A stretch of 64,000 bases of DNA from a virus (IMGVR_UViG_3300019874_000004:871-64870), one strand, 5' to 3'; counted from the stretch's first letter, positions 6,901 to 24,055 are shown. Numbers and translations are program-made. Notes: generated from the sequence alone by a model not told the origin.

Positions 6901-8931
6901 TTGCACCCTGGAGATAACTTCCAAGGACGAGTCCGGGCTGCGGACACGAGCGGTAACTTCGGACTCTGGACAAACAGCAATATCATACGGCTGGTGGACG
7001 ATGTAACTCCGCCTAACAAGCCAAGCACCCCAATGATTAGTCCCCAGTTTAAGGGAGTGAGAATAGAGTGGGACGGTACAGACTTCCAGGGCGGGCCACC
7101 TCCGGTCGACTGGTACAAAATGGAAGTGCATCTATCGGAGGTGGCAGCGTTCCAGCCGGGTCCGCTAACATTGGTAGACACCTATCTCACTCGGCTCGGG
7201 GGCGTCACGCCGGTCCAGGGTCTCGACTATGGGCATACATACTACACGCGCTTCGTAGCAATCGACTACAGGAACAACCGATCTTTACCGAGCGACGTCG
7301 CATCCTCGGGCCTGGAACAGCTTGTCGATACGACCGAAATCGCAAACAAATTAATCCAAGGGGCGATGATCGCGGATTCCGCGATTTCGGTACGCTCGTT
7401 GACGGTCGCAGCATTCGAGCCTTCCCTAGCTCCCAACGGAGGATTTGAGGTAGAAGCAACCGATGCTGCTGGCGTCGGTCTGGGCCTACCATTCGGCTGG
7501 TCCTCTAGCTTCTGGACAATCGGGGCTGGGGCTGTAGTTGCATATGACACAACTACGCCGATCTCCGGTCTCAAATCTGTACAAATGACTATGGCTGCGG
7601 CGGCCGACGGGCTCCGCTACCAATCCTCTGTTTTCCCAGTGACAGAGGGCAAGCTCCTAGCCTGTTCGGTGAAGGTCCGGGCTTCTCGCGCAATCGCAAA
7701 CCCTGCGTTCGAGCTTCACATTGTCTGCGGCAATACTGAAGCGAATACTGGCGCGTTCCCGAGCGCGGGTGTGTCCGTATGGGGAACAAGCGCAACCGTC
7801 GTCGGTACCACCGCAGTCCAGACGCTTGAACTCCAGCGCATTGTTGATGCTAGCATGAAGTTTGCCCGGGTGTTTGTGACCTGCCTAAATGCGAATGACG
7901 GGCTCGGCGGCTGGATTGGCACGATTGATGATGTAGCAGTGTTGCCAGTAGGCGGCTCTGCGTTTATTGCAGATGCGTCAATCTTGAATGCGAAGATCGC
8001 AAACCTCGCTGTGAACGATGCAAAGATTGCAACTGTTAGCGCGGGAAAGCTGACTGTCGGCTCTCTCACCGCAGACGTCACAGTTTCTGCTAGAATAAAG
8101 ACCTCCAATACCGGCGCGCGGGTTGAGCTGAATAGCTCGGGGCTGCAGGCATTCAACACCGGTGGATCGCAGACAGTAGATGTGTCATCTGCCACTGGTT
8201 CCGTAGTTATTGTTGGAACTCTGGTAACAGGATTCACTGGGACTCGGCTACTCATTGACTCTAGCGCTGCTAACAACATTGCGTTCTATCCTAGCTCTGG
8301 TGTTAACTATTCGAGAATTGCTGCGAGTGAGGATGCTGCTCCATCGGCAAACTTATTCATGGAGACAGGAACATTCACATATAACTCAGTCACCACCAGA
8401 CACAGAATATTCATGCAGAATGCTTCTGGATTTTATATGGGCAGCATTGCTGTGTCTGGATCAACTACCAATGGGGGCATAGTCTTCCTTGGAGCTTCAA
8501 ACTCCAGCTTCTCACAATACAACTCAGGTGGGACGCAAGATGGTGGACAAGTAATTATAGATGCTACCTACTCAAGAATGCTTACTACTAACTCAGCCAC
8601 AATGGTTTCTGAAGTCCTTTTACAAGATGATGCTGCAGTTAGAATTAGCGGCTCGTTCATCAATAACCGTTCATTCTCCAACAATGCACGAGATGCGATC
8701 ATCTCAGGATCTCAGGGCGCCAGCGGGTCTTTCACAGGGGTAACAACATTCACAACGACCTATGGCGGTACTGCTACTAGCACGCCTGGTGTTGTTTATA
8801 GTCCGATTGTGACTGGATTCAGAGACTTCCGAATGACATCTTATGGGACTACTAGCTTTGTAGTTGACATGAATGGTACTGCTACAGCAGTAGCAGTGGG
8901 GTTCCACTACTGGGCCTACCGACAGATTTAA
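3913..8931 (+). CDS. Large tail tip / receptor-binding protein: Tal-like N-terminus, FN3-like segments, DUF4185/DUF5005-like propeller, two CBM-like modules
   Basis: 1672 aa after Dit; WLGGDGGDS..FWVFSDT..HNS motif; PNGGFE-type CBM4/9-like segment; PPNKPSTP..GVRIEWDG FN3-like segment; ITA.KI-type repeats near the C-terminus. Confidence 0.85.
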   Translation: MTATYMFKGCDGVTGIPTVFLPQFQDASTSFEMSDVGSISFGYLKTGVNASYLQQNLVEIAIFQNGVEMDDGRFTVQSFSSDEIANDEPVKYTGVSLSNMLKKAIVYSADDSRTLGVDQVFVGATAGGILKALFNQNKARGTNRVMDRITYASFGSTTDSNGSPWAFTIGEITYTVGVNYLDVMRNLFNNGMIEWKMVGRDLRVYNAGTMGTDHTLDADPVVLRKGRDLTEAPISSTREAVSAVALVVGNENVLSEFVDTSVAAAWGEDETFISQGGISDPSTLAVLSQQAVAAVSEVRVQNTHKIALASSAWTPYVHYKTSDYIYTDRGQGLDRLRIRQMVIDIEAGESSSVSLVLNDKFLEQDIINSRRINGILGGASSTGSVAVPTDPGPEVDTTIPKAPTAVTANSAVGINSAGSSVAVASLTWPAVVQNTDGSTLSDLDHYETQYKTDTATSVTPFSALGPARDDEVMTRKFDRRGKGYGWLGGDGGDSQRATSGKDFWVFSDTNLGTADQSGKIGTDWSFIHNSIVITNPTDTSVFQGQWGMGNKLSKEDAWFDTTIGLWQADTNCAVIRDTSAFFYGTASMKITATAAADAVARIAAPATSAYIVSAFDVFSASARVKTLSGTARNVVLSIRWYDASNALLSTTTGSSVAGSTTVWTRYNVKGTAPINAVRGTVLVTIKSAAAAQVFNVDCIGLYKGDQSYGSWNDPNRGALGGPIALINPEDLGGAAIASGSLANTIYWIDSVVLVGGKLLGFLMRYTPVGVFQNTIHVVQWDGTTHAFESITVFTTSDVIIWSSATYKDASFLYVIGIDSTAAPTARTHYIMRVPIGTPLTGTKEYWGGSSWTTTRASAAVIYTGFQTAIGGIVLISGVFNAIITIFGEGTVRRLTASVITGPYTDTGSIYTQPDMGSGLVAYFARIHEQFDDNLGVLMSYSVNGSVGGVNSLGNIRYYAPKFFRGPASPAAALTPITDWGGIRIIESGTVVDNIGDLHPGDNFQGRVRAADTSGNFGLWTNSNIIRLVDDVTPPNKPSTPMISPQFKGVRIEWDGTDFQGGPPPVDWYKMEVHLSEVAAFQPGPLTLVDTYLTRLGGVTPVQGLDYGHTYYTRFVAIDYRNNRSLPSDVASSGLEQLVDTTEIANKLIQGAMIADSAISVRSLTVAAFEPSLAPNGGFEVEATDAAGVGLGLPFGWSSSFWTIGAGAVVAYDTTTPISGLKSVQMTMAAAADGLRYQSSVFPVTEGKLLACSVKVRASRAIANPAFELHIVCGNTEANTGAFPSAGVSVWGTSATVVGTTAVQTLELQRIVDASMKFARVFVTCLNANDGLGGWIGTIDDVAVLPVGGSAFIADASILNAKIANLAVNDAKIATVSAGKLTVGSLTADVTVSARIKTSNTGARVELNSSGLQAFNTGGSQTVDVSSATGSVVIVGTLVTGFTGTRLLIDSSAANNIAFYPSSGVNYSRIAASEDAAPSANLFMETGTFTYNSVTTRHRIFMQNASGFYMGSIAVSGSTTNGGIVFLGASNSSFSQYNSGGTQDGGQVIIDATYSRMLTTNSATMVSEVLLQDDAAVRISGSFINNRSFSNNARDAIISGSQGASGSFTGVTTFTTTYGGTATSTPGVVYSPIVTGFRDFRMTSYGTTSFVVDMNGTATAVAVGFHYWAYRQI

Positions 8932-11083: not shown

Positions 11084-11416
11084 ATGACGATCGATGACTA
11101 CTGGTTGACGTTCCTCATTGCGACCGTCCTTCCCGCAGCCGTCGCAGTGGTGACGAACCGTTGGGCCTCTGGAACATTGAAGGCTTTGGTCTTGATCCTG
11201 CTCTCTGCTCTGAATGGATGGCTGACCAGCCTACTGTCTAGCGGCGGCAGGTTCGAGCTAAAGGCTGCGGCTGTGGGATTGTTTATCTCCTTCATCACCG
11301 CAGTCACTGCGCACTACGGACTGACGGGAACGAATGCACTATCCATTACCGGTCGTGATGGTACGATCCAGAAAGCTCTACCAGGAGGACTGGGAGGCGG
11401 CAATCCGGTAGAATAG
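11084..11416 (+). CDS. Holin-like membrane protein
   Basis: Three hydrophobic helices; AGGAGG RBS; last gene before a terminator. Confidence 0.65.
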   Translation: MTIDDYWLTFLIATVLPAAVAVVTNRWASGTLKALVLILLSALNGWLTSLLSSGGRFELKAAAVGLFISFITAVTAHYGLTGTNALSITGRDGTIQKALPGGLGGGNPVE

Positions 11417-11446
11417 GAATTGCTCTGAGGTGCCCTCCTTGGAATG

Positions 11447-11488
11447 AATGGCCCGGTCTGAACCCCTCCACAGGCCGGGCCATTTCAC
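11447..11488 (+). terminator. Intrinsic terminator-like hairpin ending the late operon
   Basis: AATGGCCCGGTCTG / CAGGCCGGGCCATT 14-bp stem (one G-U) with a short T run. Confidence 0.75.
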
Positions 11489-11519
11489 GCCCAAAATCCA
11501 CCGTATGTAGATTGCAGCA

Positions 11520-12085
11520 ACACAGATGCACGCATGCGCTGCCCCGGTTGGCTAGCCAACTACCGCGCGCCCGCCGCCGATTATATACCAACTTCGCGCG
11601 CGTTCTATAGGCTCGCGCGCCACCCGAGCCTGTTCGACGCGCGCGCATGCGGGAGCCTTCCCGACGCGGGCGGGTGCGCGACTCGAAACCGCGCGCATTG
11701 CGCGATGCCTATTCCCCGCGCGCATGTGTAGGCGCGCGGTCAAAGGCATCGCCCGCACGCACGCGACTGGCGCACGTGTCGAGTACCGCGCGCCCGAGGT
11801 TCGGGCCTCGCGTGCCCGCGCGTCGCGCTGGCGGTCTATAGGCTCCCGCATGCGCCTAGGCGACGTGTAGGCGCGCGAGCCGAGGGAGCTCCGGGGCCTC
11901 GCGCGGACGTACAACCTCCACGCCCGCGCGGCCGATCAGGCGACGTGCGCGATGCCTTCGACCGCGCCCGAGCATGCATATGTGCGCATGCGCGTAGTTC
12001 TCGACACGTGCACGCGCGCGGTGAATAGGATCGCGCGAGCCTCTTAGTGCGATCTAGGCCCGCGACGCGCGCGCTACGCGAGGCA
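11520..12085. repeat. Non-coding CpG-saturated, alternating purine/pyrimidine tract with degenerate internal repeats
   Basis: Dense CGCGCG, GCATGC and CACGTG; repeated CTATAGGCTC, GTGTAGGCGCGCG, CGCGATGCCT and TACCGCGCGCCCG; no credible ORF. Confidence 0.75.
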
Positions 12086-12568
12086 GAAAATTTTTTTTTA
12101 TTTTTCCGAAAAAGGGTAGACGCCGGTCCTGGGATGGAGGAGAGTTCTACTCGTAAGGTTCGGTACGGCGGAGCGGGCGGAGCGTTCGCCCCTCCGGTAC
12201 GGAAGGCTAGGCGCGGTCCGTCCGCTCTCGCGGTACGTCTCGACCCGCCTACTCGCCCTAAGGCGCTACCCGTAGGCCGTGTACGAGGCGGCGCGGAAAA
12301 AATCAGACCGAAACAGGACTCCATCAGCTCGCCGCTCACCTATGGTGACCCGCGATGATTCGAGAAAACACGCCCTGTTAGGTTGGAACCCCCTTCGGAG
12401 AGGGGCCATAGAGAGAGCCGAGAGGATACTAACCACCACGCCTGTAATGTCGCTAGTGGTGGAAGTTACGTCCGGAGTGAACTAGCAGCGGGATTAGGCC
12501 ACCGCGAGCTGGAAAGACGCTCAAATCAGTGAGTCGACCGGACAGGGAACTTGAAGGCTAAAGGTCAA

Positions 12569-12640
12569 TAGCAGGGCGGATAACAGCGAAATTGGAATTG
12601 GTGCTTATCCATAAGGGTTCGATCCCCTCCCTGCTAGCAA
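12569..12640 (+). ncRNA. tRNA-like element (acceptor plus T-arm minihelix, no D arm)
   Basis: TAGCAGGG/CCCTGCTA 8-bp stem stacked on AGGG-TTCGATC-CCCT; internal GGATAA/TTATCC hairpin. Confidence 0.45.
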
Positions 12641-12683
12641 GGACTGCGATGGTCGTAGTCCGATTTCAACAAGGAGAACTAAG

Positions 12684-13166
12684 ATGGCTGCTACACGTAC
12701 TTCCCGCAAGCCCCGTTCGGCTGTTCCGGCGGCTCCAGTCGAGCCGATCGCACCGGCGACGGTGAAGACGCCACGGCGTCGCCGTCCGGCTGCTATCCCG
12801 GCTAAGGTGGTCGAGGTGCAGGGCGATGCTCTTACCTCGGTGGCTGCGCCGACCCTGCTCGGAGCGAACGGCGAGCTCATCCGCCACACGCAGGATTACA
12901 CGGTCGACCTGCTCGACCCCGGTGCCGAGCCGGACCGGGATTATAAGAAGGTCCTTGCTAAGGACCCGTCACAGGTGCACGTCGACTTCGTTGCATGGGT
13001 GCAGAAATACGTCGGCTATGACGCCGACGTCAAGACGGTGCAGATCCTGATCTCGACGTACCACGAGTTCCAGAAGACCCCCGAGCAGAAGGCCAAGACG
13101 ATTGCGAAGCGTCTCGGCGCGGCGCAGAAGCGGGCTGAGGCTGCAAAGAAGACAGCCGCTAAGTAG
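12684..13166 (+). CDS. Basic nucleoid-like / DNA-binding protein, paralog of 21884-22363
   Basis: R/K/P/A-rich tails; core PSQVH..F...VGYDADVKTVQ..I..Y..FQKTPEQ shared with the paralog. Confidence 0.7.
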   Translation: MAATRTSRKPRSAVPAAPVEPIAPATVKTPRRRRPAAIPAKVVEVQGDALTSVAAPTLLGANGELIRHTQDYTVDLLDPGAEPDRDYKKVLAKDPSQVHVDFVAWVQKYVGYDADVKTVQILISTYHEFQKTPEQKAKTIAKRLGAAQKRAEAAKKTAAK

Positions 13167-13193
13167 GCTAGGCTCGATCCGGCCGTGATGGTT

Positions 13194-13256
13194 GTGCAGG
13201 GCGATAGAAGGTCCCCCTGCACTTCCACCCCAGTCGGGGACCGAGAGGAGAACAAG
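13194..13256 (+). promoter_or_regulatory. Early leader module copy A: hairpin with TAGAAGG loop, small hairpin, RBS
   Basis: GTGCAGGGCGA-TAGAAGG-TCCCCCTGCAC; CCCC-AGTC-GGGG; GAGGAGAACAAG-ATG. Confidence 0.7.
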
Positions 13257-13499
13257 ATGATGGATAAGGCGACGGTCATGCAGTTCGAGATGGCCGACGG
13301 TACGAAGTACAGGATTACCGACGATGAGGGAATGGAGTTGTTCCTCGATCGTCAGGTACCGGGAAGGAAGTTCGGCGCGCTGTCCAGCGAGTTCTGCTGG
13401 GAGGGGCTGGAAAGTACCGGCGTCGAGAGCGAGGACAACGGCCTGGAAGAGGCCATCATGTTCCTGCTGAAGGTCGCTCTGCGGGACACCAAGGCGTAA
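13257..13499 (+). CDS. Hypothetical early protein (80 aa, acidic)
   Basis: Strong RBS; phage-like codon usage. Confidence 0.75.
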   Translation: MMDKATVMQFEMADGTKYRITDDEGMELFLDRQVPGRKFGALSSEFCWEGLESTGVESEDNGLEEAIMFLLKVALRDTKA

Positions 13500-13514
13500 C
13501 CCGGCCGCGAGTAT

Positions 13515-13575
13515 GGTGCTGAGTTAGAAGGACTCAGCACCGTGCGCCCAGCCGGGCAACCGAAGGGAGAGCAAG
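13515..13575 (+). promoter_or_regulatory. Early leader module copy B
   Basis: GGTGCTGAGT-TAGAAGG-ACTCAGCACC; GCCC-AGCC-GGGC; GGGAGAGCAAG-ATG. Confidence 0.75.
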
Positions 13576-14034
13576 ATGATGAGGTTGGTAGAGACCAATA
13601 GCCTGCGAAAGTGGGCTGCGGGGATGCTGGATGAGGCCAGAGGAAATCTCTGGCAGGAGACCCATAGCCTGGGAGATCAGGTACACCTCGCAAACCCGCT
13701 GGAGTTTGCGGCTGGTGCTGAAGATGACGGGGCGATCGTCAGCACCGACTACACAGAGGTGGAGAATCGGGTATGGGTCAGGATGTACATGGCGAGTCGG
13801 GGCATGCCGGCCGACTATATGTGGGTTGCTGAAGGCCCATCTCGCAATGGTCCGTCCGGACAGTGGTTCGTGGAGCGCCTGGTCGGCGAGTCCATCCCGC
13901 AGCCAGAGCTGCAAGAGCCCTTCGCCAAGGAAGCGCAGCACGCACAGGCGCTCGGTCTCAATGCGCTGATCGCTACAGCCGATATCGACGGCTTCACTGA
14001 GTACGAAGCACGCCAGACGGGCGGCTCGGAGTAG
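13576..14034 (+). CDS. Hypothetical early protein
   Basis: 152-aa ORF with RBS. Confidence 0.7.
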   Translation: MMRLVETNSLRKWAAGMLDEARGNLWQETHSLGDQVHLANPLEFAAGAEDDGAIVSTDYTEVENRVWVRMYMASRGMPADYMWVAEGPSRNGPSGQWFVERLVGESIPQPELQEPFAKEAQHAQALGLNALIATADIDGFTEYEARQTGGSE

Positions 14035-14040
14035 GCACGA

Positions 14041-14105
14041 GGGCGCAGAGTTAGAAGGACTCTGCGCCCGATGCTCATTCCGGAGCAGACGATAGGGAGA
14101 ACAAG
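14041..14105 (+). promoter_or_regulatory. Early leader module copy C
   Basis: GGGCGCAGAGT-TAGAAGG-ACTCTGCGCCC; TGCTC-ATTCCG-GAGCA; GGGAGAACAAG-ATG. Confidence 0.75.
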
Positions 14106-14363
14106 ATGGCAAGAGTTTCTGTTGTTGCGCAGCAGGAGGAGTACGATGAGGTCCTGCAGCTCCTGGAAGCGCTCTCGGCGCTCTCCGAGCAGGGTCGGCC
14201 GGTCCTGAACGGAACCAAGCAGGAGGACTCGGACGGCCGAGTCTGGTACGGCTACGACTACAGCGGCGCGTCTTGGTGGATCACCAAGTCGATGGCTGCG
14301 GAGTCCGACACGACCGCAGAGCCATACGAATTCGCCGAACAGAAAGAGCCGCACACGGCGTAG
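14106..14363 (+). CDS. Hypothetical early protein
   Basis: 85-aa acidic ORF with RBS. Confidence 0.7.
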   Translation: MARVSVVAQQEEYDEVLQLLEALSALSEQGRPVLNGTKQEDSDGRVWYGYDYSGASWWITKSMAAESDTTAEPYEFAEQKEPHTA

Positions 14364-14369
14364 GCAGCA

Positions 14370-14434
14370 GGGCATAGGGAATTAGCAAGCCCTATGCCCA
14401 ATGCTCATTCCGGAGCGCAACTGAGGAGGATGCA
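14370..14434 (+). promoter_or_regulatory. Early leader module copy D
   Basis: GGGCATAGGG-AATTAGCAAG-CCCTATGCCC; GCTC-ATTCCG-GAGC; GAGGAGG RBS. Confidence 0.7.
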
Positions 14435-14587
14435 ATGCCTGCTGCGACTATCAAGGACGTCAAGGAATTCTTCGGCCTGAAGGAAGGCCAGAACCTCAAG
14501 GGCTTCACGGAGGAATGGAAGGTCCTGTCGGAAGAGGCCCGGACGCAGATCAAGGAAGGCATCGGTAACGGCTCGTTCTCTTACTGA
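14435..14587 (+). CDS. Small early protein (50 aa), below the ORF-track cutoff
   Basis: MPAATIKDVKEFFGLKEGQNLKGFTEEWKVLSEEARTQIKEGIGNGSFSY; strong RBS and host-like codons; resembles a small protein I recall from Streptomyces phages (from memory). Confidence 0.75.
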   Translation: MPAATIKDVKEFFGLKEGQNLKGFTEEWKVLSEEARTQIKEGIGNGSFSY

Positions 14588-14596
14588 GATGCAGCG

Positions 14597-14667
14597 CGGT
14601 CCACAGCTACATACGGTTGCTGTGGGCCGTGCCGCACTTCAGATCGGAGTGCAAGGAGGGAGCAATT
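14597..14667 (+). promoter_or_regulatory. Early leader module copy (between 14587 and 14668)
   Basis: CGGTCCACAGC-TACATACGGTT-GCTGTGGGCCG; GCACTTC-AGATC-GGAGTGC; AAGGAGGG RBS. Confidence 0.65.
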
Positions 14668-15219
14668 GTGAAGGGTTTGTTGTGGCTGCGCCGGATGCTC
14701 ACTACAGGGCTTACCGGAGTGGCTTTCTGGAACTCGTACAACCACACGGCCGCTTGGTTCTCGGACCACGGCCAAGCCGAGCAGTCGGGATGGCTCGCGC
14801 TTATCCCGGAAGTCGGCGTGATCCTGGTGGTGCTGACCCTATGCACCGGTAAGCTGGGTCGAGTTGAGTCTGCTATCGTCCGGGCGATCGGAGTCGGGTC
14901 GGTCGCAATCACGTTCACTGCTAACCTCGCAGGGGCATCTGCGGGGCCGATGGGAGTCACGGCCGCTCTGGTAGCGCCTGTGTTCGCGGTGCTAGGCTTC
15001 GCTCTAGAGGCGGTAAGTCTGTCGGCCGAGATCGAGCCGCCCCAGTCTCCTCCGCAGCCCGCCCGCAAGAAGCAGATGGGCAAGACGGACATTGGAATCC
15101 TCTGGGCCACTGAGCGAGACGAGTGGCCGACCACGGCGCAGATCCTGGAGAAGTTCCCAGATATCTCCGTGACGACGGCTCGCAAGATCCACAACTCCAA
15201 GAACTTGGTCAGCGTCTGA
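14668..15219 (+). CDS. Membrane protein, DUF2637/SpdA-like, with a C-terminal HTH-like tail
   Basis: Four TM segments (WNSYNH..WLALIPEVG..ITFTANL..ALVAPV) followed by a PTTAQILEKF..ARK helix-turn-helix-like end. Confidence 0.6.
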   Translation: MKGLLWLRRMLTTGLTGVAFWNSYNHTAAWFSDHGQAEQSGWLALIPEVGVILVVLTLCTGKLGRVESAIVRAIGVGSVAITFTANLAGASAGPMGVTAALVAPVFAVLGFALEAVSLSAEIEPPQSPPQPARKKQMGKTDIGILWATERDEWPTTAQILEKFPDISVTTARKIHNSKNLVSV

Positions 15220-15222
15220 GAG

Positions 15223-15287
15223 GATGGTACAGGGAGAGAAGGCCCTGTACCGTCTGCCCAGACGGGTGCTCAATCAAGGAGGGCAAC
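15223..15287 (+). promoter_or_regulatory. Early leader module copy (between 15219 and 15288)
   Basis: GATGGTACAGGG-AGAGAAGG-CCCTGTACCGTC; GCCC-AGAC-GGGT; AAGGAGGG RBS. Confidence 0.7.
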
Positions 15288-15545
15288 ATGAAAGATGAGA
15301 AGATCCTGGCTGAAGGGGAGCTTGATGCAATCAAGCTGATTCAGGCTGGGATACCTGCAGTAGTCGAGAGCGATCCGATGCAGTTCTACTACGTCCTGGC
15401 AGAGTTGTCAGATATCGAGCAGAAGTGGTTGTGCAGCGTCTGCTACTGGCGCTACTACCACGCCCGACCGATCCTGGCAACTATGTCAGAGACGCAGTTC
15501 TGCAATAACAACGAGGGCGCACACTGTAGGGAGTGTGGGGTATGA
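15288..15545 (+). CDS. Hypothetical protein with CxxC motifs
   Basis: CSVC, FCNN..HCREC; RBS present. Confidence 0.65.
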   Translation: MKDEKILAEGELDAIKLIQAGIPAVVESDPMQFYYVLAELSDIEQKWLCSVCYWRYYHARPILATMSETQFCNNNEGAHCRECGV

Positions 15546-15817
15546 ATCCTGTACATCACCTCTTCAGTGCAAGCGCCCGCATACGGTGCGCGGAGTCTGG
15601 GCATATGTGGAATGATGCATCCTTCTTTCTAGTGCATTGGATGCATAAGCCAGTCCTTGAGCGCGTGCAGAAATGCGAGCGTGTAGGCTGCAATCGTACT
15701 CGTACAGACCGGGTTTCTCCAAGCTCCCTGGAGCGCGTCAGTCGGGTCTACGGGGGTAAGATCGAGAGACTCGGACGGGTGACGCGACAGGATATGCTGA
15801 AGGAGATTATCGGCTGA
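15542..15817 (+). CDS. Hypothetical Zn-binding protein
   Basis: C..SGHMW..CERVGC; ATGA overlap with the upstream gene. Confidence 0.6.
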   Translation: MNPVHHLFSASARIRCAESGHMWNDASFFLVHWMHKPVLERVQKCERVGCNRTRTDRVSPSSLERVSRVYGGKIERLGRVTRQDMLKEIIG

Positions 15818-15921
15818 TGGATTGGGACTGCCCTTGGTGCGGGGAGCACTGCACAAGCGAGCGTGACCTAGAGGGGCACGCCGCAGAATGCGAACCATTT
15901 CTGGAGGAACAAGATGGCTGA
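15817..15921 (+). CDS. Micro Zn-finger protein (34 aa)
   Basis: MDWDCPWCGEHCTSERDLEGHAAECEPFLEEQDG; TGATG coupling and GGAG upstream. Confidence 0.5.
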   Translation: MDWDCPWCGEHCTSERDLEGHAAECEPFLEEQDG

Positions 15922-16249
15922 TGAAACGCCCGGCATCGACATGGGAACGCTGCTGGGATATGCAAGTGGAGGGATAGTGCACTCCCCAAACCCGATCTTC
16001 GCATCCCTGCTGCAGGATCTTCCTGAAGATAACTGCGTCCGGAGGATGTATGGGCTCGGGCATACGGACCACCTGATTACGACCTGGCCCAGGCCGGACG
16101 CTAAGAGCGCTCCTGCGATCGAGCCGGACCGAATCCTGCGACCGCACGAGGCAATGCAGAAAGACTTCCTGAAGAGGCGTCGCAAGAAGGATGCGCCTCC
16201 CGCTCTGAACCTGCCTCCCGCAGGGTCGCACAGGATCAGTGATCTCTGA
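15914..16249 (+). CDS. Hypothetical protein
   Basis: GGAGGAACAAG-ATG start. Confidence 0.6.
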   Translation: MADETPGIDMGTLLGYASGGIVHSPNPIFASLLQDLPEDNCVRRMYGLGHTDHLITTWPRPDAKSAPAIEPDRILRPHEAMQKDFLKRRRKKDAPPALNLPPAGSHRISDL

Positions 16250-16707
16250 TGGCGATCATCTGCGGGAATAGGTCTGCAAGCCATTGCATGGGCTCTCACC
16301 CCTCCGTCGCCGCAGTTAAAGCCTGCTATAGAGGACAGATGGTACAGGGGAGTCTGGACATGGACCCGCCCGTCCTCGCAGCCCTCCCTGAAATGAAAGA
16401 GGGGATGTGGAAGATCGGAGAGCGTGTCTTCAAAGTCCAGATTGCGCACCACGGCTCTGGTCGCCTATACTGCAAGGAACTCCTGGTGGAGGAGGATGTA
16501 CCTGGCGGTGAGCAGTATTCCCACTATTGGGAGATGCGGTCAGGCTTCATGCCGACTCTGCGCAGAGAAGGGGCGCAGATGACTCTGGAAGAGGCCAAGA
16601 AGTTCGGCGCTCTGTACGGATTCTGCTGCAACTGCGGGAAGATCCTCACCAATGAGAAGTCGATCGAACTGGGCATCGGCCCGGTTTGCAGGGGGAGATT
16701 CTCATGA
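16249..16707 (+). CDS. DUF6011-like Zn-binding protein
   Basis: C-terminal CCNCGKILTNEKSIELGIGPVC motif. Confidence 0.75.
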   Translation: MAIICGNRSASHCMGSHPSVAAVKACYRGQMVQGSLDMDPPVLAALPEMKEGMWKIGERVFKVQIAHHGSGRLYCKELLVEEDVPGGEQYSHYWEMRSGFMPTLRREGAQMTLEEAKKFGALYGFCCNCGKILTNEKSIELGIGPVCRGRFS

Positions 16708-16919
16708 GCGTCTTCCACGCAGAGGAAAAGTCTACACACGAAATCATCCGTTGTTATCAGGACCCAGAGGGCATCTGGGTAGATGATGAGAACGATCCAG
16801 GCTACATCGACGACGAGACGTTCGAGAAGTTGTACGAGCGCGTCAACTGAGCTGGGGCCGGGCGCAGGCGACTCACGTAGCTCCCTGTGCCCGGCCCCCA
16901 CCATGTTAGGAGAACAGCA

Positions 16920-17183
16920 GTGAGTGCAATTGAAGAAGCCAAGGCCGGTCTGGAAGCCGCCAAGGAGCACGCAGAGACTGCTTGGCAGGAAGCAAGCCAA
17001 GCCAAGGAGACTGCGGCCGAGACGATCGACATGATTCTGAACGTGACCGGCCCGGATCTTCCAGAGCTCGCATCTATCCCGTTCAACATGATTCAGGAGG
17101 CACAGAACCAGATCGAGCAGGCGCAAGCGCTCCTGTCTTCCGCACAGGAAGCTCTGGAAGAGTACAGCAATTCACTCGGCTAA
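16920..17183 (+). CDS. Helical-hairpin protein (87 aa)
   Basis: Two amphipathic helices joined by NVTGP; AGGAG RBS. Confidence 0.65.
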   Translation: MSAIEEAKAGLEAAKEHAETAWQEASQAKETAAETIDMILNVTGPDLPELASIPFNMIQEAQNQIEQAQALLSSAQEALEEYSNSLG

Positions 17184-17203
17184 ATAACAGCACAGGAGGA
17201 AAA

Positions 17204-17596
17204 ATGATAGTTTACGTATCGATGCCAGATCGTGGAGTCGAGCTGGAATTCCTGGCAGAGATCCTGGATACCTGCGAGTCCGAGATTCAGAGCTGGTGCG
17301 AGATCATCTCGTCCACTCGGACCGAGCAGCCAGAGTATCGGCGGATTGAGATCCTGCACGACGGCAAGGCGATCACCCTCGACCACAGTACGGTGCTGAC
17401 CGGGATTAATCGCCTGCTGAAGGACTACAATCCCAGGGTCCACAAGGGCGGCATGAACCTGGTAGTCCCGACCTTCGGGCAGATCTGTGAGTGGCTGATC
17501 ATGAGCATCAACGACGGCGACACGAGTATGGTGGACGCGGACGTCGCAGACGCCATCATCCAGTACGGCGTCTTGGGAAGTATGGAATACAGCTGA
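17204..17596 (+). CDS. Conserved phage hypothetical protein
   Basis: C-terminal DADVADAIIQYGVLG motif, common in phage proteins (from memory); AGGAGG RBS. Confidence 0.65.
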   Translation: MIVYVSMPDRGVELEFLAEILDTCESEIQSWCEIISSTRTEQPEYRRIEILHDGKAITLDHSTVLTGINRLLKDYNPRVHKGGMNLVVPTFGQICEWLIMSINDGDTSMVDADVADAIIQYGVLGSMEYS

Positions 17597-17701
17597 CAAT
17601 GGGAGACCAACAGAGGGAGGCATTCCGCAAGGCAATGAAGAGAGAGGCAAGGCGCATTCGTGTCCTTGCTATTATCAGGAAGATCTTACATGGAGGGCAC
17701 C

Positions 17702-18787
17702 ATGGTAGATGAAGGCAAGATCCTGGATCAGATCCGGCATATGCTGGCGTTGGCGAACAATCCGGCAGCTAGCGATGCCGAGCGAGAGCTTGCGCTGTCG
17801 ATGGCCAACCGGAAGATGGCCAAGCACGCTATCGACCAGGCGATGCTGGATGCGACCCGAACGTCCACTGAAAAGCGCAAGCCTACCAGCAAGCGCATAC
17901 GGTTGTTCGATGCCGACTTCCAGTGGTCTGGTTACTTCTACGGGGTGATCGGGAAGCTGGGAGAGGTGAACGGCTGCCGGATTGCCTGGCACAGCAGCTA
18001 CAATGAGATCACGCTAGTCGGAATGCAGGAGGACGTCGACTGGGCAGAGATGCTCTGGCTGCAGGTCTTCCTGGACTTCAGCTCCAAGATCAATCCGCGC
18101 TGGGAGCCGGAGCTGCGGCTGGAAGAGAACATCTTCAACTTCAAGCACGCCGGTTACAAGTGGAAAGATATCTGGGAGATCGGCAACCGCAAGCGGGCTG
18201 GCGGGATGCCAGACGGCGGCATCCAGTTCGTCCCCAACAAGTGTGGGTACATGAAGACGATGTACCACAAGCAGTGCAAGCAGCGAGAGGTCAGCCCGGT
18301 CGGCACGCAGACCTTTGAAGCCTACAAGATGACGTTCACCAACTACTTTGTCTTCCGGGTCAATACCCGCCTGGAAGAGATGGCAGAGGTGCGGGCCGAA
18401 GAGGCAGGCGCCACCTCAGGGTCTGAGCTGGCTCTCTTCGACGTCAGTAAGCTGATTGATGAGGAGCTCTGGAACCTCTTCCCAGCTCTGCACCCCGACG
18501 AGCAGGCGCGTCGTGAGGAAGCCGCGAGGAAGCTCGCTAAGGACGCCGAAGAGAGGGACGCTAGCTATCTAGCCTCGCTCTCTCCCGAGGCTCGGAAACG
18601 GGTCCTGACGGCGCGGGCGGACGCCGAACGAGCGAACGCTAAGGCCGACGCGAGGTACTACCGCACCGCCAAGAGGACCTACGACGCAGCTGGAGCGGCT
18701 GCGGGCGATCAGGCCGGAAGTAGCGTCAGCCTGGCACGGTCGGCGCGCTCAGCAGGACAGGCCGAAGCTCGCAAGGAGCTAGCGTGA
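17702..18787 (+). CDS. DUF2786-domain protein
   Basis: N-terminal KILDQIRHMLALANNPAASDAERELALSMANRKMAKHAID. Confidence 0.75.
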   Translation: MVDEGKILDQIRHMLALANNPAASDAERELALSMANRKMAKHAIDQAMLDATRTSTEKRKPTSKRIRLFDADFQWSGYFYGVIGKLGEVNGCRIAWHSSYNEITLVGMQEDVDWAEMLWLQVFLDFSSKINPRWEPELRLEENIFNFKHAGYKWKDIWEIGNRKRAGGMPDGGIQFVPNKCGYMKTMYHKQCKQREVSPVGTQTFEAYKMTFTNYFVFRVNTRLEEMAEVRAEEAGATSGSELALFDVSKLIDEELWNLFPALHPDEQARREEAARKLAKDAEERDASYLASLSPEARKRVLTARADAERANAKADARYYRTAKRTYDAAGAAAGDQAGSSVSLARSARSAGQAEARKELA

Positions 18788-19126
18788 AGTTCCTGGTGAT
18801 CTACAAACCTAGCAATGGCGTCGACTACCGCGAGGTGATCGACTGCGATGCGTTTGCTATGAATCCCAATGGCCGATTCGCATTCCTACAATTCCGTGAT
18901 CTCGCTCCCTACAAGGACTCGAACGGGATTGAATGGACGCCGATCGAAGGCGCGTTGCTATTTGCCATCCCATTCGAAGACGTGCAAAGAATCGAGGGAA
19001 TCTGATGTGGTGGTGGATCGGGGGACTTGGGACCTTAGGATTTTTTGACCTGCTACTCCACGCAGCCCGCGAGCGGTGTCTGCAGGCCGACGACATCCAC
19101 GACTATGAGGATGATGAGCCATACTG

Positions 19127-19630
19127 ATGGACATTCCAGAACTCAACAGCAAAGCAAGGTACGACATACGGTTGCTGAACGTCAACAAGGACGAGACTCT
19201 GACCGATGTAACCTGGACTCAGGGCGTCGACTACCGGCGGCTGCTTGATGCGGTCCTGGAGCTGATTGTGATGAAGGAGAGAAATGCGGAAGCGTTCGCA
19301 GGCGACATCATTATCAGCGCGGCTGGGTCACGCGATCCAATGCCTAGATATCGAAGACTGCAAGAGAGTAGCTCTGACAGTAGCAGTCCTGTCCTCCGCA
19401 GTGTACCAAGCATTGGAGAAGATGCAACCGAGCAGCGTCCCGGTCACGATCACTACTGGGGCCAAAAGCAGACCATCGAGGCAGAGAGGCTCAGGAGGAC
19501 GCAGGCCGAACTAGAGAATGTGAACTGGCAGTGCGATAACTGCTCGCACATCGCCGGTCGCCACAGTAATGTAGCTCCGTTCAGATGTATAGTTGACGGG
19601 TGCGATTGTTTCACCTGGTCAGGAGAATAG
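19127..19630 (+). CDS. Hypothetical protein with C-terminal Zn finger
   Basis: CDNCSH..H..C..CDC. Confidence 0.55.
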   Translation: MDIPELNSKARYDIRLLNVNKDETLTDVTWTQGVDYRRLLDAVLELIVMKERNAEAFAGDIIISAAGSRDPMPRYRRLQESSSDSSSPVLRSVPSIGEDATEQRPGHDHYWGQKQTIEAERLRRTQAELENVNWQCDNCSHIAGRHSNVAPFRCIVDGCDCFTWSGE

Positions 19631-21577
19631 ATGGACGCCCATGTAGAGTTAGACCCAGAGCTAAACCGGATCTTCCTGCGGGTTGAATACTACGTGGGGG
19701 TCTCGCAAGACTGTAAGGCTATCCCTGGATACAAGTGGCACCCTGATATAGAGGGAAAGCCCTGGAGCTACCCGGCAAGAATGCAAACTTGCCATGCACT
19801 GCGGAAGGTGTTCGGAAAGAAAATGACCATCGGCCCATTCCTTACAGAGTGGGCCAGGAAGAATGCGCGAGCCTATGCTAGGCAGAGATCCCTCGCAAGC
19901 AAACCGGACTCAGACCTGGCGAAAGTCAAAGCGATGTTCCCTGCGTTCTGGGATGCGATGTCAAGTCGACCATACCAACGGTCTGGCGCGGAGTTCTTGG
20001 CGACCACTGGCCACACCGCAGACTTCTCAGAGCCGGGGCTAGGCAAGACGGCGACTAGTCTCGCAGCGCTCATTCAGGCAGGGGTATTCGCAGGAGGGAG
20101 GCACCTGGTTATCGTCTCTAACAAGACCGCTATACGGTCGACCTGGAGACACGAGATTGAGAAGTGGACTCCAGGGGCGCACGTCTACCCGATGCCAGAC
20201 GGCTGGCAGAAGCGGGAGCAGGAGCTAGACAAATTCTGGGCCGACAATAGCAGCGCTGCGAAGTTCGTAGTCTGCCTTCCGCACATGCTCCAGATTAAGC
20301 AAGAGCGCTGGTGCAAGAAGTGCAAGCAGTGGGCGAACGATCCCAAGCAACTATCTGCAGAGCACTACGGGGAGTCCCACAAGGTCACGACTGAGGACTA
20401 CAGGATTGACTGGCAAGAGCTGTTCTCGATCGAGTGGGACTCCATCATCGCAGATGAGGCGCACGACTACCTCCTCAAGCTCCGCCCGGGACAATCTAAG
20501 AACCAGCCCCAATGGGCAATAGGCATGCGTCGGCTCCAGGTTAAGCAGGGCGGCGTGAAGCTGCCTATGACCGGGACGCCGATGCGCGGAAAGGAGCAGA
20601 ATCTATTCGGCATCCTGTACTGGATCGATCCCATACGGTTCTCTTCATTCTGGGCCTGGGCCGGGGCATACTTCGATGTTGTCAATAATGAATACAACCA
20701 GACAGTCGGGAAGCTGCGGCCGGAAATGGAGGAGGCATTCTATGATGTGATCGACTCCCTCTGCCTCCGCAGAACCCTGCGCGAGGTACGCAAGGACCTT
20801 CCACCGCAGCTCCCACAGGAGCACTGGGTTCCATTAGACGGCGAGCACAGGAGGCAGTATGAGGAATTTGAGGCAGAGGGGGTCGTGGCCCTGGAGTCCG
20901 GCGTGCTGGAAGGGCTAGGAACCTTGTCGGAGTTGACAAGGCTCCGACAATTAGCATTCGGCCCCTGGGACGTAGAGATAGATCAGGACGACGACAAGCA
21001 GACCATCAAGATGGTTGAACAGGTCGAGAAGTCTCCCAAGGTTCAGCTCATGATGGATATGCTGCGGGAGCGCGGCATCCCGGGTGACGTATTCACACAG
21101 CAGCGTGACGCAAAGGACGCTCGCAAGTTCATCATTGCCTCCCAGTACACGCAGATCATCGGCGGGCTGGAGCGGATGTTCAGCAACATGGGAATCGCGA
21201 CGCTTTCAATTACCGGCAAAGTTACCGGTAGCAAACGCTCCGCCGCAGTCACCTCATTCCAGAAGCCGGGTGGACCGCGAATTCTTCTCATCAATACCAA
21301 AGCAGGAGGAGCCTCGCTCACCCTCGATGCTTATTGTGATGAGATGTTCATCCTGGATGAGACCTGGATTCACGATGACCAGGTCCAGCTAATGGGTCGC
21401 ATCAATAATCGGGGGCAGCGAATCGCAACCCGGATTTACCACTTCTTCAGGACAGAGGAGACGATCGATGAAGGAATAGCAATGGGCAATGATGATCAGA
21501 ATCAGATGCAGTCTATGATCCTCGACAGTCGTCGTGGAAATCAGGTAGCCTTGAGACTACTGAAGCGGAGAGAGTAA
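19631..21577 (+). CDS. SNF2/SF2-family helicase
   Basis: EPGLGKT Walker A, IADEAH, MTGTP, QLMGRINNR; CKKC Zn insertion. Confidence 0.92.
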   Translation: MDAHVELDPELNRIFLRVEYYVGVSQDCKAIPGYKWHPDIEGKPWSYPARMQTCHALRKVFGKKMTIGPFLTEWARKNARAYARQRSLASKPDSDLAKVKAMFPAFWDAMSSRPYQRSGAEFLATTGHTADFSEPGLGKTATSLAALIQAGVFAGGRHLVIVSNKTAIRSTWRHEIEKWTPGAHVYPMPDGWQKREQELDKFWADNSSAAKFVVCLPHMLQIKQERWCKKCKQWANDPKQLSAEHYGESHKVTTEDYRIDWQELFSIEWDSIIADEAHDYLLKLRPGQSKNQPQWAIGMRRLQVKQGGVKLPMTGTPMRGKEQNLFGILYWIDPIRFSSFWAWAGAYFDVVNNEYNQTVGKLRPEMEEAFYDVIDSLCLRRTLREVRKDLPPQLPQEHWVPLDGEHRRQYEEFEAEGVVALESGVLEGLGTLSELTRLRQLAFGPWDVEIDQDDDKQTIKMVEQVEKSPKVQLMMDMLRERGIPGDVFTQQRDAKDARKFIIASQYTQIIGGLERMFSNMGIATLSITGKVTGSKRSAAVTSFQKPGGPRILLINTKAGGASLTLDAYCDEMFILDETWIHDDQVQLMGRINNRGQRIATRIYHFFRTEETIDEGIAMGNDDQNQMQSMILDSRRGNQVALRLLKRRE

Positions 21578-21838
21578 ATGATCGGTCTAATCTGGGTCAT
21601 GTGTGTTGTGACTGCATATACCGTTGCTACAGTTTCAGCAGGGTATCTATGGGGCCGTGCGCACCAGATCAATCATGACAGGCACGTGCAAGACATGATG
21701 AATGATGCTGCGGACAACGCCCGGATGGCGCAGCGGCATCGCATACGGACGGCCGAGGCTGACCTGAATTCCAACGCCCAGGTACGTACGGCTAGACTGC
21801 GGGCCTACAGATACAAGACCCCTCCGCCACGTAAGTAA
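21578..21838 (+). CDS. Single-TM hypothetical protein
   Basis: Hydrophobic N-terminus. Confidence 0.5.
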   Translation: MIGLIWVMCVVTAYTVATVSAGYLWGRAHQINHDRHVQDMMNDAADNARMAQRHRIRTAEADLNSNAQVRTARLRAYRYKTPPPRK

Positions 21839-21883
21839 ATCCGCTAGGGTAGAGCTAGTCAACCGACACAAGGAGAAACCGAA

Positions 21884-22363
21884 ATGGCACGTGCAACCAA
21901 GGCCGTCGCAAAGCCTGTCGAGCCTGAAGAGGACGACTACGAACTTGGCCACTACATGGACAAGGAGCCGTCCAAAGTCCACGAGAACTTTGCGGAGTAC
22001 GTCGGCGAGATGGTCGGCTATGATGCCGACATCAAGACCATCCAGCTCGTGATCGCCCTGTACCAGAAGTTCCAGAAGACGCCGGAACAGCAGGCATTCA
22101 ACAAGGCCAAGAAGGAAGCCAGCGCCGAAGCTGCGGAAGCTCGCGAGGCCAAGCGCGCCAAGGCTGAGAAGGCCGAAGTCTCTACCCCCAAGGCCCGGAC
22201 CTCCAGTCGTACCAAGGCTGCTTCGGCGGCCGAAGAGGTTGAGGAAGAGGAAGCTCCTGCACGCCCTGCTCGTGGACGCCGTGGTGCTGCTCCTGCCGCC
22301 CCTGTGAAGCGGGCCACGTCGCGCCGTCGTCCGGTTCCTGCCGTAGACGACATCGACGAGTAG
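21884..22363 (+). CDS. Basic nucleoid-like protein, paralog of 12684-13166
   Basis: KEPSKVHENF..VGYDADIKTIQLVIALYQKFQKTPEQ core; A/K/R/E-rich tail. Confidence 0.75.
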   Translation: MARATKAVAKPVEPEEDDYELGHYMDKEPSKVHENFAEYVGEMVGYDADIKTIQLVIALYQKFQKTPEQQAFNKAKKEASAEAAEAREAKRAKAEKAEVSTPKARTSSRTKAASAAEEVEEEEAPARPARGRRGAAPAAPVKRATSRRRPVPAVDDIDE

Positions 22364-22677
22364 CGTGCAGGTCGGTGTTCCTGTGGTCCTTCTAGCTGCA
22401 GGAACTCACGGTGGGTCCGTTAAGCCCACCCCACATACGGCCCCCAATCTCTCGGGTTGGGGGCTGCGGTGTCGGTAGTGGCCTCCCAGACCACTATACC
22501 ACTGACGCGATAAGGTGGGAGACTGAGAAGGCTCTGATCCTTGCGCACCTGACCAGCCATGGCCCATGAGCAGATCCTTGCACAAGAGATACCTCGCATA
22601 GTCCGCCAAGGAGACGGGGAAAAGGTGGTGCAATTCCACCCGGGGCCACGAACACCATCTACATACGGAGGGCAACC
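22364..22677 (+). ncRNA. Candidate structured non-coding RNA
   Basis: At least five hairpins (several with G-U pairs), a possible pseudoknot and a GGTGG-TGCAATT-CCACC T-arm-like element; no convincing ORF with RBS. Confidence 0.5.
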
Positions 22678-22960
22678 GTGGGAATGACATTGCGACAACT
22701 GATAGACAGCCTCATTGATCTGGAGGAGGCAGCCAAGACAATAGGCGACCCGCCGGTCAGGGTTGCATCTCTCGGATATGCAGAATGGCGAGAGGAAGAC
22801 CGTCTTGTTGATCTGGAAACTGTGAGCCTGCGGTTTAACAATGGAGACATAATCTTGGGAGTTGATAAGTGATGATGTGGATTGAAGGAATCGCTCTCGC
22901 ACTATGCATCCCTGGGATCTTCTTCATCCTTGGGCTCTGGGCTAACGGCTGGTTTGACGA

Positions 22961-24055
22961 ATGATCGAACTCAGGACATCCGAGAGGGCGACGTTTAAGC
23001 GCTGCCCGCAGAGATGGGAGTGGGGAGTCAAAGAGGGACTGCGACCGCACCGGGAGGCTACACCGCTCTGGTTCGGGACCGCAGTCCACATTGCGTTAAG
23101 CGAGTGGTACCTGCCCGGGTTAGCTCGCGGCCCACATCCAGCGCTGACGTTCTTGAAGGTGCTAGAGGGCGACCGGTCAATTCGCATTCCCTCGGATAAT
23201 GAGGAATGGGAAGCCGAGTACATGAAGGCCAAAGACCTTGGGCAGGAGATGCTCACGAACTATGTCGACCACTGGGGGAAGGATAACAACAAGTACTATA
23301 TCTGCACAGAGCGGACTGGCTCTATCTTCCTACCAGAGATCGGTAAGACCAAGGGTAGGCACACAAAGTATTTCTTCACCTTCGACGGCGTGTATCGGGA
23401 CGAGACCACGGGCGAGTATTGGCTAGACGAGCACAAGACAGCAGCCAGCATTGACCCGGGCTCTCTGCCTCTTAACCAGCAGGCTAGCTCCTACTGGGCC
23501 GTCGCAGAGGGCATCCTGAAGCGAACTGGTATGATGCCTAAGGACAAGCACATCCAGGGCATCATGTTTAACTTTCTACGAAAGGCCCCCAAGGATCGGC
23601 GACCCAAGAACGAAGATGGACTAGCCACTAACAAGCCGACTAAGGCTCACTTCCACGCAGCCTTTGAAGCAGCCGGGCTCCCCACGCAGCTATATCTGCG
23701 GGCGAAGATGGTCCGGCTATATGAAATTGCGCACGTTGAGCACATCAAGGTTCTGGGCGAGCCATCTAGTGTGCAGACCTCAGAGTTGTTCGAGCGACAC
23801 CCGGTCTTCCGGACGCCAGGGGAGCGCCGACAGCAACTGATTCAGGTCCGCAAGGACGCCTGGCATATCGAGCACGCCAGGAATGATCCGAACTATCCCA
23901 TTGTTAAGAATCCCACCAAGGATTGCAAGTGGGACTGCGACTTCTACAGGATGTGTCAGCTTCATGAACAGGGAGATATGGAGTCTGTGGAGGAGTTTAA
24001 ATCAGCAATGTATACAATCAGAGATCCCTATGAAGCATACAGGAAGAGTGCATAA
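22961..24055 (+). CDS. PD-(D/E)XK RecB/Cas4-like exonuclease
   Basis: LRTSERATFKRCPQRW; FGTAVH; FDGVYRD..WLDEHKT; C-terminal CKWDCDFYRMC. Confidence 0.88.
   Translation: MIELRTSERATFKRCPQRWEWGVKEGLRPHREATPLWFGTAVHIALSEWYLPGLARGPHPALTFLKVLEGDRSIRIPSDNEEWEAEYMKAKDLGQEMLTNYVDHWGKDNNKYYICTERTGSIFLPEIGKTKGRHTKYFFTFDGVYRDETTGEYWLDEHKTAASIDPGSLPLNQQASSYWAVAEGILKRTGMMPKDKHIQGIMFNFLRKAPKDRRPKNEDGLATNKPTKAHFHAAFEAAGLPTQLYLRAKMVRLYEIAHVEHIKVLGEPSSVQTSELFERHPVFRTPGERRQQLIQVRKDAWHIEHARNDPNYPIVKNPTKDCKWDCDFYRMCQLHEQGDMESVEEFKSAMYTIRDPYEAYRKSA

Follow-up and report, generated by a model that had tools for sequence, protein, structure and literature searches.

Why would six consecutive spaces between the early genes of one virus each hold a strong hairpin just before the next gene? 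The question is raised by a 64,000-nucleotide stretch (positions 871-64870) of the IMG/VR virus record IMGVR_UViG_3300019874_000004, which covers nearly all of the 64,870-bp record and is referred to below as the window. Between 13177 and 15287 it contains six intergenic elements, here called leaders A to F (Table 1), and these are a real, conserved and undescribed RNA module. As judged from the sequence, the source is an uncultured actinophage-like siphovirus and the leaders punctuate its predicted polycistronic early transcript.

Six leaders and their folds

An earlier note on this DNA had described six spacers with a shared layout, namely a stem, a small stem, a ribosome-binding site (RBS) and a start codon. 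Sequence and folds bear this out, and all six spacers beat their shuffled versions in folding (z -2.2 to -6.5, as first described). The division into two hairpins needs redrawing: the small stems are present, but each leader is better pictured as a single long hairpin in two parts, whose 3' side can also form a small hairpin of its own. Once 15-25 nt of the upstream flank is added, one long irregular hairpin is both the minimum-free-energy and the centroid structure in 6/6 window copies, with ~20-27 pairs counting mismatches (-32 to -43 kcal/mol; z -3.2 to -6.7). Its upper stem of 12-15 bp covaries freely and contains conserved G.U pairs. Its lower stem contains conserved non-canonical pairs, with the mismatches C.A, U.U and A.G kept in class I leaders and a 3x2 loop plus an A.C mismatch in class II. 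On its 5' side, this lower stem takes in or borders on the stop codon of the preceding gene: leaders C, D, E and F have the stop within the stem, B has it immediately ahead of the stem and A 12 nt ahead.

Alternatively, the 3' strand of that stem can form the small hairpin, 8-20 nt upstream of the next Shine-Dalgarno sequence (SD). Small hairpin and lower stem are mutually exclusive, and both have some covariation support. This arrangement could be read as a translational coupling or stand-by device, in which the hairpin would bring the upstream stop to the downstream SD, the terminating ribosome would melt the lower stem and an SD-like purine loop would hold the 30S subunit. The location of the stop in or next to the lower-stem 5' strand, the two exclusive folds and the purine-rich, SD-like loops all agree with such a device. 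However, neither fold pairs the SD, which leaves the switch with no evident target; our own pairing of the loop with the 3' end of the 16S ribosomal RNA is only partial and includes wobbles; and the partner hairpin described below would be left unexplained. We consider coupling of this kind improbable.

The stem cores of A, B, F, C and D read GTGCAGGG, GTGCTGAG, GTACAGGG, GCGCAGAG and GCATAGGG, each faced by its exact complement. Among these five leaders, 5/8 core positions vary with full compensation, which upholds the claim that the stems differ in sequence while pairing is kept. The loops and the mosaically shared blocks are likewise as the earlier note gave them, with GAGTTAGAAGGACTC common to B and C and the 16-nt block ATGCTCATTCCGGAGC common to C and D. 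By sequence, A, B, C, D and F are homologous and E is a divergent member. A covariance model was built from A, B, C, D and F, whereas E was excluded because MAFFT could not place it with the other copies. A scan of the 64-kb window with this model found no further strong copy, and E (14.3 bits) matches as a generic hairpin plus RBS. The leaders match no Rfam family, even at E<=1. The bare word TAGAAGG is not enriched in the window (6 found vs. 6.2 expected); its significance is its location, not its frequency.

Table 1. Leaders, their partner hairpin and the fold of each leader, in window coordinates
Feature	Position	Strand	Setting and lower stem	Upper stem	Loop	Alternative small hairpin	Start	Model (bits)	Fold (kcal/mol; z)
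Leader A, class I	13177-13256	+	downstream of gene X1 (12684-13166); long hairpin 13177-13238	13194-13222	TAGAAGG 13205-13211	CCCC-AGTC-GGGG 13228-13239	SD, then 13257	64.7	-33.7; -3.2
Leader B, class I	13500-13575	+	CCCGGC 13500-13505 / GCCGGG 13551-13556	13511-13545	TAGAAGG 13525-13531	GCCC-AGCC-GGGC 13546-13557	13576	79.2	-40.3; -6.7
Leader C, class II	14024-14105	+	5' strand 14024-14037 with upstream stop TAG 14032-14034	14041-14069	TAGAAGG 14052-14058	GCTC-ATTCCG-GAGC 14073-14086	14106	80.9	-42; -6.1
Leader D, class II	14353-14434	+	5' strand with stop TAG 14361-14363	14370-14399	AATTAGCAAG	GCTC-ATTCCG-GAGC 14403-14416	14435	63	-32.1; -4.4
Leader E, divergent member	14584-14667	+	lower stem with stop TGA 14585-14587	14594-14632	TACATACGGTT, C-AUAC-G type (CATACGG 14610-14616)	14634-14652, stem GCACTTC/GGAGTGC	GTG 14668	14.3	-43.1; -5.0
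Leader F, class I-like	15212-15287	+	CGTCTG 15213-15218 / CAGACG 15259-15264, overlapping stop TGA 15217-15219	15222-15255	AGAGAAGG 15235-15242	GCCC-AGAC-GGGT 15256-15267	15288	75.4	-36.6; -4.2
Partner hairpin	22377-22405	+	directly 3' of gene X2 (21884-22363)	11-bp stem, three + strand G.U pairs	CCTTCTA 22388-22394
Partner loop variants in relatives					CTTCCCT or AATTCCCTG

Covariation and hammerheads in relatives

Syntenic contigs from soil and other metagenomes were found through the DUF2786 protein (17660-18787) and the SNF2 helicase, and are designated L052-L060, L109 and L110. The covariance-model search of relatives that the earlier note had proposed returned multi-copy homologues: the window-derived model matches several spacers in seven syntenic contigs (E 1e-10 to ~3e-3), every match being on the + strand shortly ahead of a start codon, and these homologues do covary. 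In L109, one class I leader was read directly from the sequence. The class I frame has the 5' flank (U)CGGCCGUGAGG and the 3' flank CCUGCUCAGCCGAGC; the class II frame has the 5' flank GGAGUAGGCACGA, which contains the upstream UAG stop, and the 3' flank GAUGCUCAUUCCG(G)AGC. The C-AUAC-G loop variant of copy E also occurs in class I frames of the relatives (L052, at 5365 and 5633).

In the class I upper stem (12 copies), 12/14 pairs vary on both sides and 90% of the cells pair. The covariation score of this stem was reached by 0/500 shuffles, and pairing falls to ~40-53% when the partner is slid by 1-3 columns. Among the seven class II copies, both-side changes are seen in 8/12 upper-stem and 3/10 lower-stem pairs. 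Two of the four pairs of the small 3' hairpin covary (GC 7, CG 3, GU 1; UA 7, CG 4). The class I lower stem is mostly invariant, with a single pair found as UA 5, CG 3 and unpaired 4. Over 20 leaders in several genomes, G.U outnumbers A.C by 39:7 in the + strand reading and two wobble positions are conserved, in agreement with the claim that G-U pairs favour a + strand RNA. As the substitutions read, the leader structure is selected on the + strand. Because the genes are all on the + strand and the short spacers have no promoter-like site, this selection would be on the mRNA.

A promoter and terminator scan over 14 kb gave a sole promoter-like site, at 10391, and none in the leaders. The same scan found no hairpin with a U-run terminator in the + strand leaders, and the sequence has no U-run behind any copy. 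The proposal of a cis-acting RNA element on the sense strand therefore gains support, short of proof, from cross-genome covariation, from the G.U asymmetry and from the lack of a promoter-like site or U-tract.

Type II hammerhead ribozymes are also present in the relatives, in early intergenic spacers equivalent to those that hold the leaders. Rfam matches are located at L059 7301-7366 (37.5 bits, with a gathering score of 37), preceding the X1 orthologue, at L058 1743-1803 (34 bits) and at L052 4740-4799 (30.7 bits), preceding the orthologue of window gene E; a complete hammerhead core was seen by eye at L052 3220-3292. A ribozyme search of the window (Rfam, E<=1) gave no hit, and the leaders lack the hammerhead core. 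Several hammerheads are known to flank single prophage genes and have been read as processing sites of long transcripts (Perreault et al. 2011, PMC3088659). The presence of hammerheads in equivalent slots suggests that in this clade there is selection for cutting or insulation between early cistrons. The leader hairpin would then be a slot-equivalent alternative to the hammerhead, which points to intercistronic processing.

Could the leader itself be an undescribed self-cleaving ribozyme class? It occupies the same slots as the hammerheads of the relatives, combines variable stems with conserved unpaired nucleotides and is without an Rfam match; moreover, self-cleaving ribozyme classes reportedly cluster, a report attributed to Weinberg and colleagues in 2015. 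Nevertheless, what is conserved at its core amounts to a simple internal loop of two strands, which is not the same in the two classes and in class II is nearly a continuous helix, and the unit contains no junction or pseudoknot, so a new ribozyme class is the least probable of the readings considered here.

If the leaders were simply terminators or attenuators, factor-independent or leaky and of the 'tail-less' kind known from actinobacteria, this would explain why strong GC-rich hairpins begin 0-12 nt past stop codons, and duplication with gene conversion would explain why neighbours resemble each other and share blocks mosaically. Such terminators are quite unlikely in view of the missing U-runs, the conserved flanks, the covarying small 3' hairpin and the retention of the loop while the stems diverge, and equivalent slots hold hammerheads, which are not terminators.

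A seventh hairpin had been listed with the six. The hairpin at 16854-16898 is real, strong and GC-rich (+ strand, -41.5 kcal/mol), and it lies in a conserved slot, after the small gene behind the DUF6011 gene; long hairpins are found at the matching slot in L052-L060. Its membership of the leader family was rejected, as 16857-16922 scores 17.3 bits as a generic hairpin plus RBS.

A distant hairpin with a complementary loop

The loop of the hairpin directly 3' of gene X2 is complementary at every position to the TAGAAGG loop shared by A, B and C. X1, the gene that leader A follows, and X2 are paralogues (46% over 67 residues). A strong hairpin is present at this syntenic site in every relative that reaches there. 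Its loop is of the CUUCCCU (CTTCCCT) type in L052, L053, L054, L055 and L109, AAUUCCCUG in L057 and L110, and CUUCCC(C) in L058 and L059. The purine-loop leaders of the relatives read (A)GGGAAG, and the first leader of L057 reads GGGGAAU, of which GGGAAU faces AUUCCC in the partner of the same genome. Three complementary loop states are therefore seen: UAGAAGG/CCUUCUA, AGGGAAG/CUUCCCU and GGGAAU/AUUCCC.

The match is specific to the genome. The longest Watson-Crick run of the window loops is 7-8 with the window partner and 3-6 with the partners of other genomes, and that of the relatives is 5-8 with their own partner (6-8 barring one L057 copy) and 3-5 with the window partner. Window leader C and the L055 copy at 158 are orthologous class II leaders, with the same 5' arm, one different 3'-arm base and orthologous genes downstream; their loops are nonetheless genome-specific. 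The partner hairpins show G.U over A.C at 11:4 on the + strand. The purine loop occurs in a subset of the leader copies, the first leader after X1 always included. A loop-loop contact is the simplest reading of this covarying complementarity, and we regard it as a well-founded lead. The earlier note had overlooked this covarying partner at 22377-22405, as well as the lower stem with the upstream stop and the separate nature of the seventh hairpin.

An alternative target for the loop is a phage or host RNA-binding protein. A translational repressor, an N/boxB-type antiterminator or a chaperone could bind the apical loop and the internal mismatches and place the early cistrons under joint control, which would agree with an identical loop in A, B and C despite different stems, with the conserved unpaired nucleotides of the lower part (CGUGA opposite UGCUCA in class I) and with the fixed position beside the SD. 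A protein that reads the purine loop, however, would not read the pyrimidine loop at 22377-22405, and the covarying complementarity would be unexplained. Many copies are also without the loop motif, and no RNA-binding domain was found in the neighbouring genes. We therefore hold a protein site to be unlikely.

In the leaders the motif lies on the + strand, the copy at 22388-22394 is on the - strand, and recombination between copies does occur (see below). These observations would suit an element acting at the DNA level, as a single-stranded hairpin or a cruciform for recombination, replication priming or protein binding, with an inverted motif at 22.4 kb. This is very unlikely, given that the excess of G.U over A.C is on the + strand in both leaders and partner hairpins, that orientation is constant in every genome, that the leaders are tightly linked to stop codon, SD and start, and that the partner stem is not a reversed leader; the partner hairpin was rejected as a reversed leader copy since stems and flanks are unrelated.

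Other candidates for additional pairs were rejected. A purine-loop hairpin at L058 3523-3554 was dropped as a hidden leader, as it lies within the conserved N-terminus of a DUF6011 protein. A second kissing pair for the CAUACGG loops (CCGTATG, 11501-11507) was discarded for its weak stem, and the - strand copies of CCGTATG in the relatives sit in genes or at a start codon, which speaks against such a pair. A trans-acting hammerhead beside the partner hairpin was also set aside, there being no core motif at that place and no ribozyme hit in the window.

Several features adjoin the pair of hairpins. X1 and X2, whose function is unassigned, contain a shared domain and a basic Arg/Pro-rich region in swapped order, and each has one of the two complementary hairpins immediately behind it. 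Ahead of the gene that comes next after the partner hairpin is a conserved start region, ACATACGGAGGGCAnnCCGTG, present in the window (22655-22682) and at the same site in L052, L054, L055 and L057; its ACGG and CCGT could pair and would place the SD in a loop and the GTG start in a stem. A tRNA gene lies between the partner hairpin and the next gene in L057 (11332-11409; Rfam tRNA, 47.2 bits) and L055 (~8060-8140), and the window has there instead ~270 nt of non-coding sequence with two further hairpins.

Proposed processing, cassette exchange and wider meaning

RNase III substrates consist of ~22 bp with internal loops, where single-strand cuts leave stabilising 3' hairpins, and the T7 early precursor (~7 kb) contains five RNase III signals (PMC3867540). 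The best-supported reading, and a quite plausible one, is that the leaders are a module of this type, for processing and stabilisation, with a possible kissing-loop regulatory layer and a second role as a recombination joint. A host double-strand RNase (RNase III type) would cut the mismatched lower part of the leader. After the cut, the big hairpin would close the upstream message, and the downstream message would be capped at its 5' end by the small hairpin, a parallel to the stem I hairpin that the type II hammerhead leaves behind. A ribosome halting at the upstream stop would have to open the lower stem, by which the small hairpin could form. The UAGAAGG leader loop of the window, or the AGGGAAG loop of the relatives, could kiss the loop of the hairpin after X2, a contact that probably adds regulation.

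Several points weigh against this explanation. The element is known here from DNA sequence; cleavage, RNA ends and timing are predicted at most, and the host and its RNases are presumed. RNase III needs no conserved apical loop, so the loop requires the extra idea of kissing or of a protein. The co-change of the loops amounts to one large and one small event. The purine loop is absent from D, E and several copies in the relatives, and L058 and L059, which are more distant, keep the CUUCCC(C) partner loop with no purine-loop leader seen in either. Furthermore, the class I lower stem is nearly untouched by the covariation test because it is mostly invariant.

A different emphasis is possible but doubtful. 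In a kissing circuit, one X2-side hairpin, made later or released, would contact several early leaders at once and thereby determine how they are processed, degraded or translated; a rarer version has the leader as a new self-cleaving or trans-cleaved RNA that would take the place of the hammerheads. In P1/P7 c4 RNA and P4 CI RNA, a short hairpin RNA region has complements at several sites of its own transcription unit, and the partners co-change between related phages. The leaders differ from these in that the complementarity here is only one of 6-8 nt between loops and that the regulatory contact is proposed from the sequences. If true, the kissing circuit would be a multi-target loop-loop switch for early-gene shut-off in actinophages.

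The second role attributed to the leaders under the processing explanation, that of a recombination joint, was traced in contigs from a soil run of a second study (X3), which were aligned to window 11400-23000 and represent a close relative (pieces mostly 90-100% alike). One X3 contig jumps from 14070 to 14401, so that 330 nt are skipped, and the 16 letters ATGCTCATTCCGGAGC fit both flanks of the joint. The loss is exactly gene C plus one hairpin. Gene C is removed here by exchange between leaders C and D; the evidence is direct though thin, as the joint rests on a single low-depth contig. By our own reasoning, 16 nt is too short for an assembly-graph repeat at k=31. The genes between leader copies encode unrelated proteins, mostly ORFans, or are shuffled among the relatives, and a comparison of gene content between copies, as the earlier note had advised, found it to be mosaic. 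The leaders thus also serve as homologous-recombination joints for the loss or swap of single-gene cassettes, again on direct but thin evidence. The idea of cassette boundaries, put forward at the outset, is supported by the C-D joint and the mosaic gene content and stays short of proof.

In function, the leaders are closest to the T7 early RNase III signals. Both occur as repeats between early cistrons and consist of irregular hairpins that span about two helical turns and have mismatches in their internal parts (PMC3867540), and the comparison with T7 made by the earlier note is favoured by the irregular hairpins and by the hammerheads in equivalent slots. Processing leaves a stabilising 3' hairpin in T7 (PMC3867540), whereas cleavage is only predicted for the leaders. 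The sequences are unrelated and the host of the leaders is presumably an actinobacterium. Unlike the T7 signals, the leaders have a conserved apical loop with a distant complementary partner, an alternative 3' hairpin and a base that overlaps the upstream stop.

In evolution, the leaders are closest to the T4-type PeSLs, which are short repeats before small ORFan early genes in a plastic region where recombination produces indels and swaps (PMC2839356, PMC4122927). A PeSL consists of a sigma-70-like early promoter and a terminator stem-loop (PMC2839356, PMC4122927), whereas the leaders showed no promoter-like site and no hairpin with a U-run in the + strand scan, and PeSL stems are conserved whereas leader stems covary. 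Repeat-bounded indels in close relatives, a criterion for PeSLs, are also found for the leaders, in the 14070 to 14401 joint and the mosaic gene content. Clustered prophage type II hammerheads (RF02276; PMC3088659) resemble the leaders in placing one RNA module in each intergenic slot of a phage operon, but the RF02276 core (CUGAUGA, GAAA and a three-way junction) is absent from the leaders. The SAS and ESAS repeats of Cluster K are likewise actinophage repeats tied to the translation starts of non-structural genes (PMC3203893). The SAS has the unvarying 13-bp sequence GGGATAGGAGCCC and lies shortly before the start, and the ESAS are 17-bp inverted repeats with a consensus and a 4-13 bp spacer, of unknown function (PMC3203893). 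The leaders have differing SD regions, arms that compensate without a consensus, and a conserved loop with conserved flanks, and they have no sequence likeness to SAS or ESAS.

The setting of the leaders was also characterised. The window has a GC content of ~55%, and its long open reading frames are all on the + strand. From left to right are tail genes (including the tape measure), ~1.2 kb of non-coding sequence (~11.5-12.65 kb), small genes from 12684, and replication genes encoding DUF2786, SNF2 helicase, primase/MCM helicase and DNA polymerase III alpha proteins. The closest named phages are Microbacterium phages, with ~50% amino-acid identity in the primase. A near-DNA search of 50,697 phage records found nothing matching the window, and searches of IMG/VR with the X1 protein and with the primase found no relative. 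Protein look-ups of genes B and D gave a self-match only or nothing. Pattern scans of IMG/VR (B/C block; class I frame) gave chance matches only; the 29 matches to the class I frame in GTDB genomes were likewise due to chance, and 0 of them score with the covariance model. A scan of JGI metagenomes with the DUF2786 alignment returned short contigs only. Public sequencing runs containing window sequence are soil DNA metagenomes only, with no RNA run listed. A tRNA/tmRNA scan of the window found none.

Additional features were observed elsewhere in the window. The 7-mer CATACGG occurs at 23 sites (4855-62772) vs. 5.6 expected, a count reached by 0/100 shuffles. All 13 copies at 14.6-35.5 kb are on the + strand, many within genes, and 5/6 copies at 4.8-11.5 kb are on the - strand; the + bias is also seen in the early and replication region of the relatives (L052-L060). 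CATACGG looks like an oriented DNA motif (Chi- or KOPS-like) with a strand switch near 12 kb. The GC-rich non-coding sequence at 11490-12120 contains iteron-like direct repeats (four of the 25-nt CGCGCGCGnT.TATAGG.TCGCGCG) and many inverted repeats, ends in a T-run (12090-12106) and differs in the X3 relative by several substitutions and indels; taken with the strand switch, these features make it a candidate for a replication origin or control region. Just upstream of X1, 12570-12639 has a tRNA-like fold with a 7-bp acceptor-like stem (AGCAGGG/CCCTGCT), a long arm and a GGGTTCGATCCCC T-arm. This fold is kept in L052, L053, L056 and L057, with a covarying acceptor stem, and was not called by ARAGORN or Rfam; it may serve RNase P/Z as a punctuation mark. 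In the homologue of DNA polymerase III alpha (34351-37485), residues 534-750 weakly match an intein-splicing domain, below the Pfam cut-off, and an intein there is possible.

Precedents for repeated RNA punctuation of early phage operons are T7 (RNase III), T4 (PeSL) and the hammerhead clusters of prophages, but such punctuation is hardly described in actinobacterial phages, where the SAS and ESAS of Cluster K stay unexplained. The leader family offers a clean covarying structure outside Rfam and natural "swap" evidence, in that leaders and hammerheads fill the same slots. It also brings a candidate distant loop partner that co-changes with the leaders, and metagenomic evidence of cassette-loss joints. 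If processing and kissing are both true, the leaders would provide a testable model for how ORFan early genes are expressed, insulated, switched off and shuffled, and they could supply compact insulator parts for actinobacterial synthetic biology.

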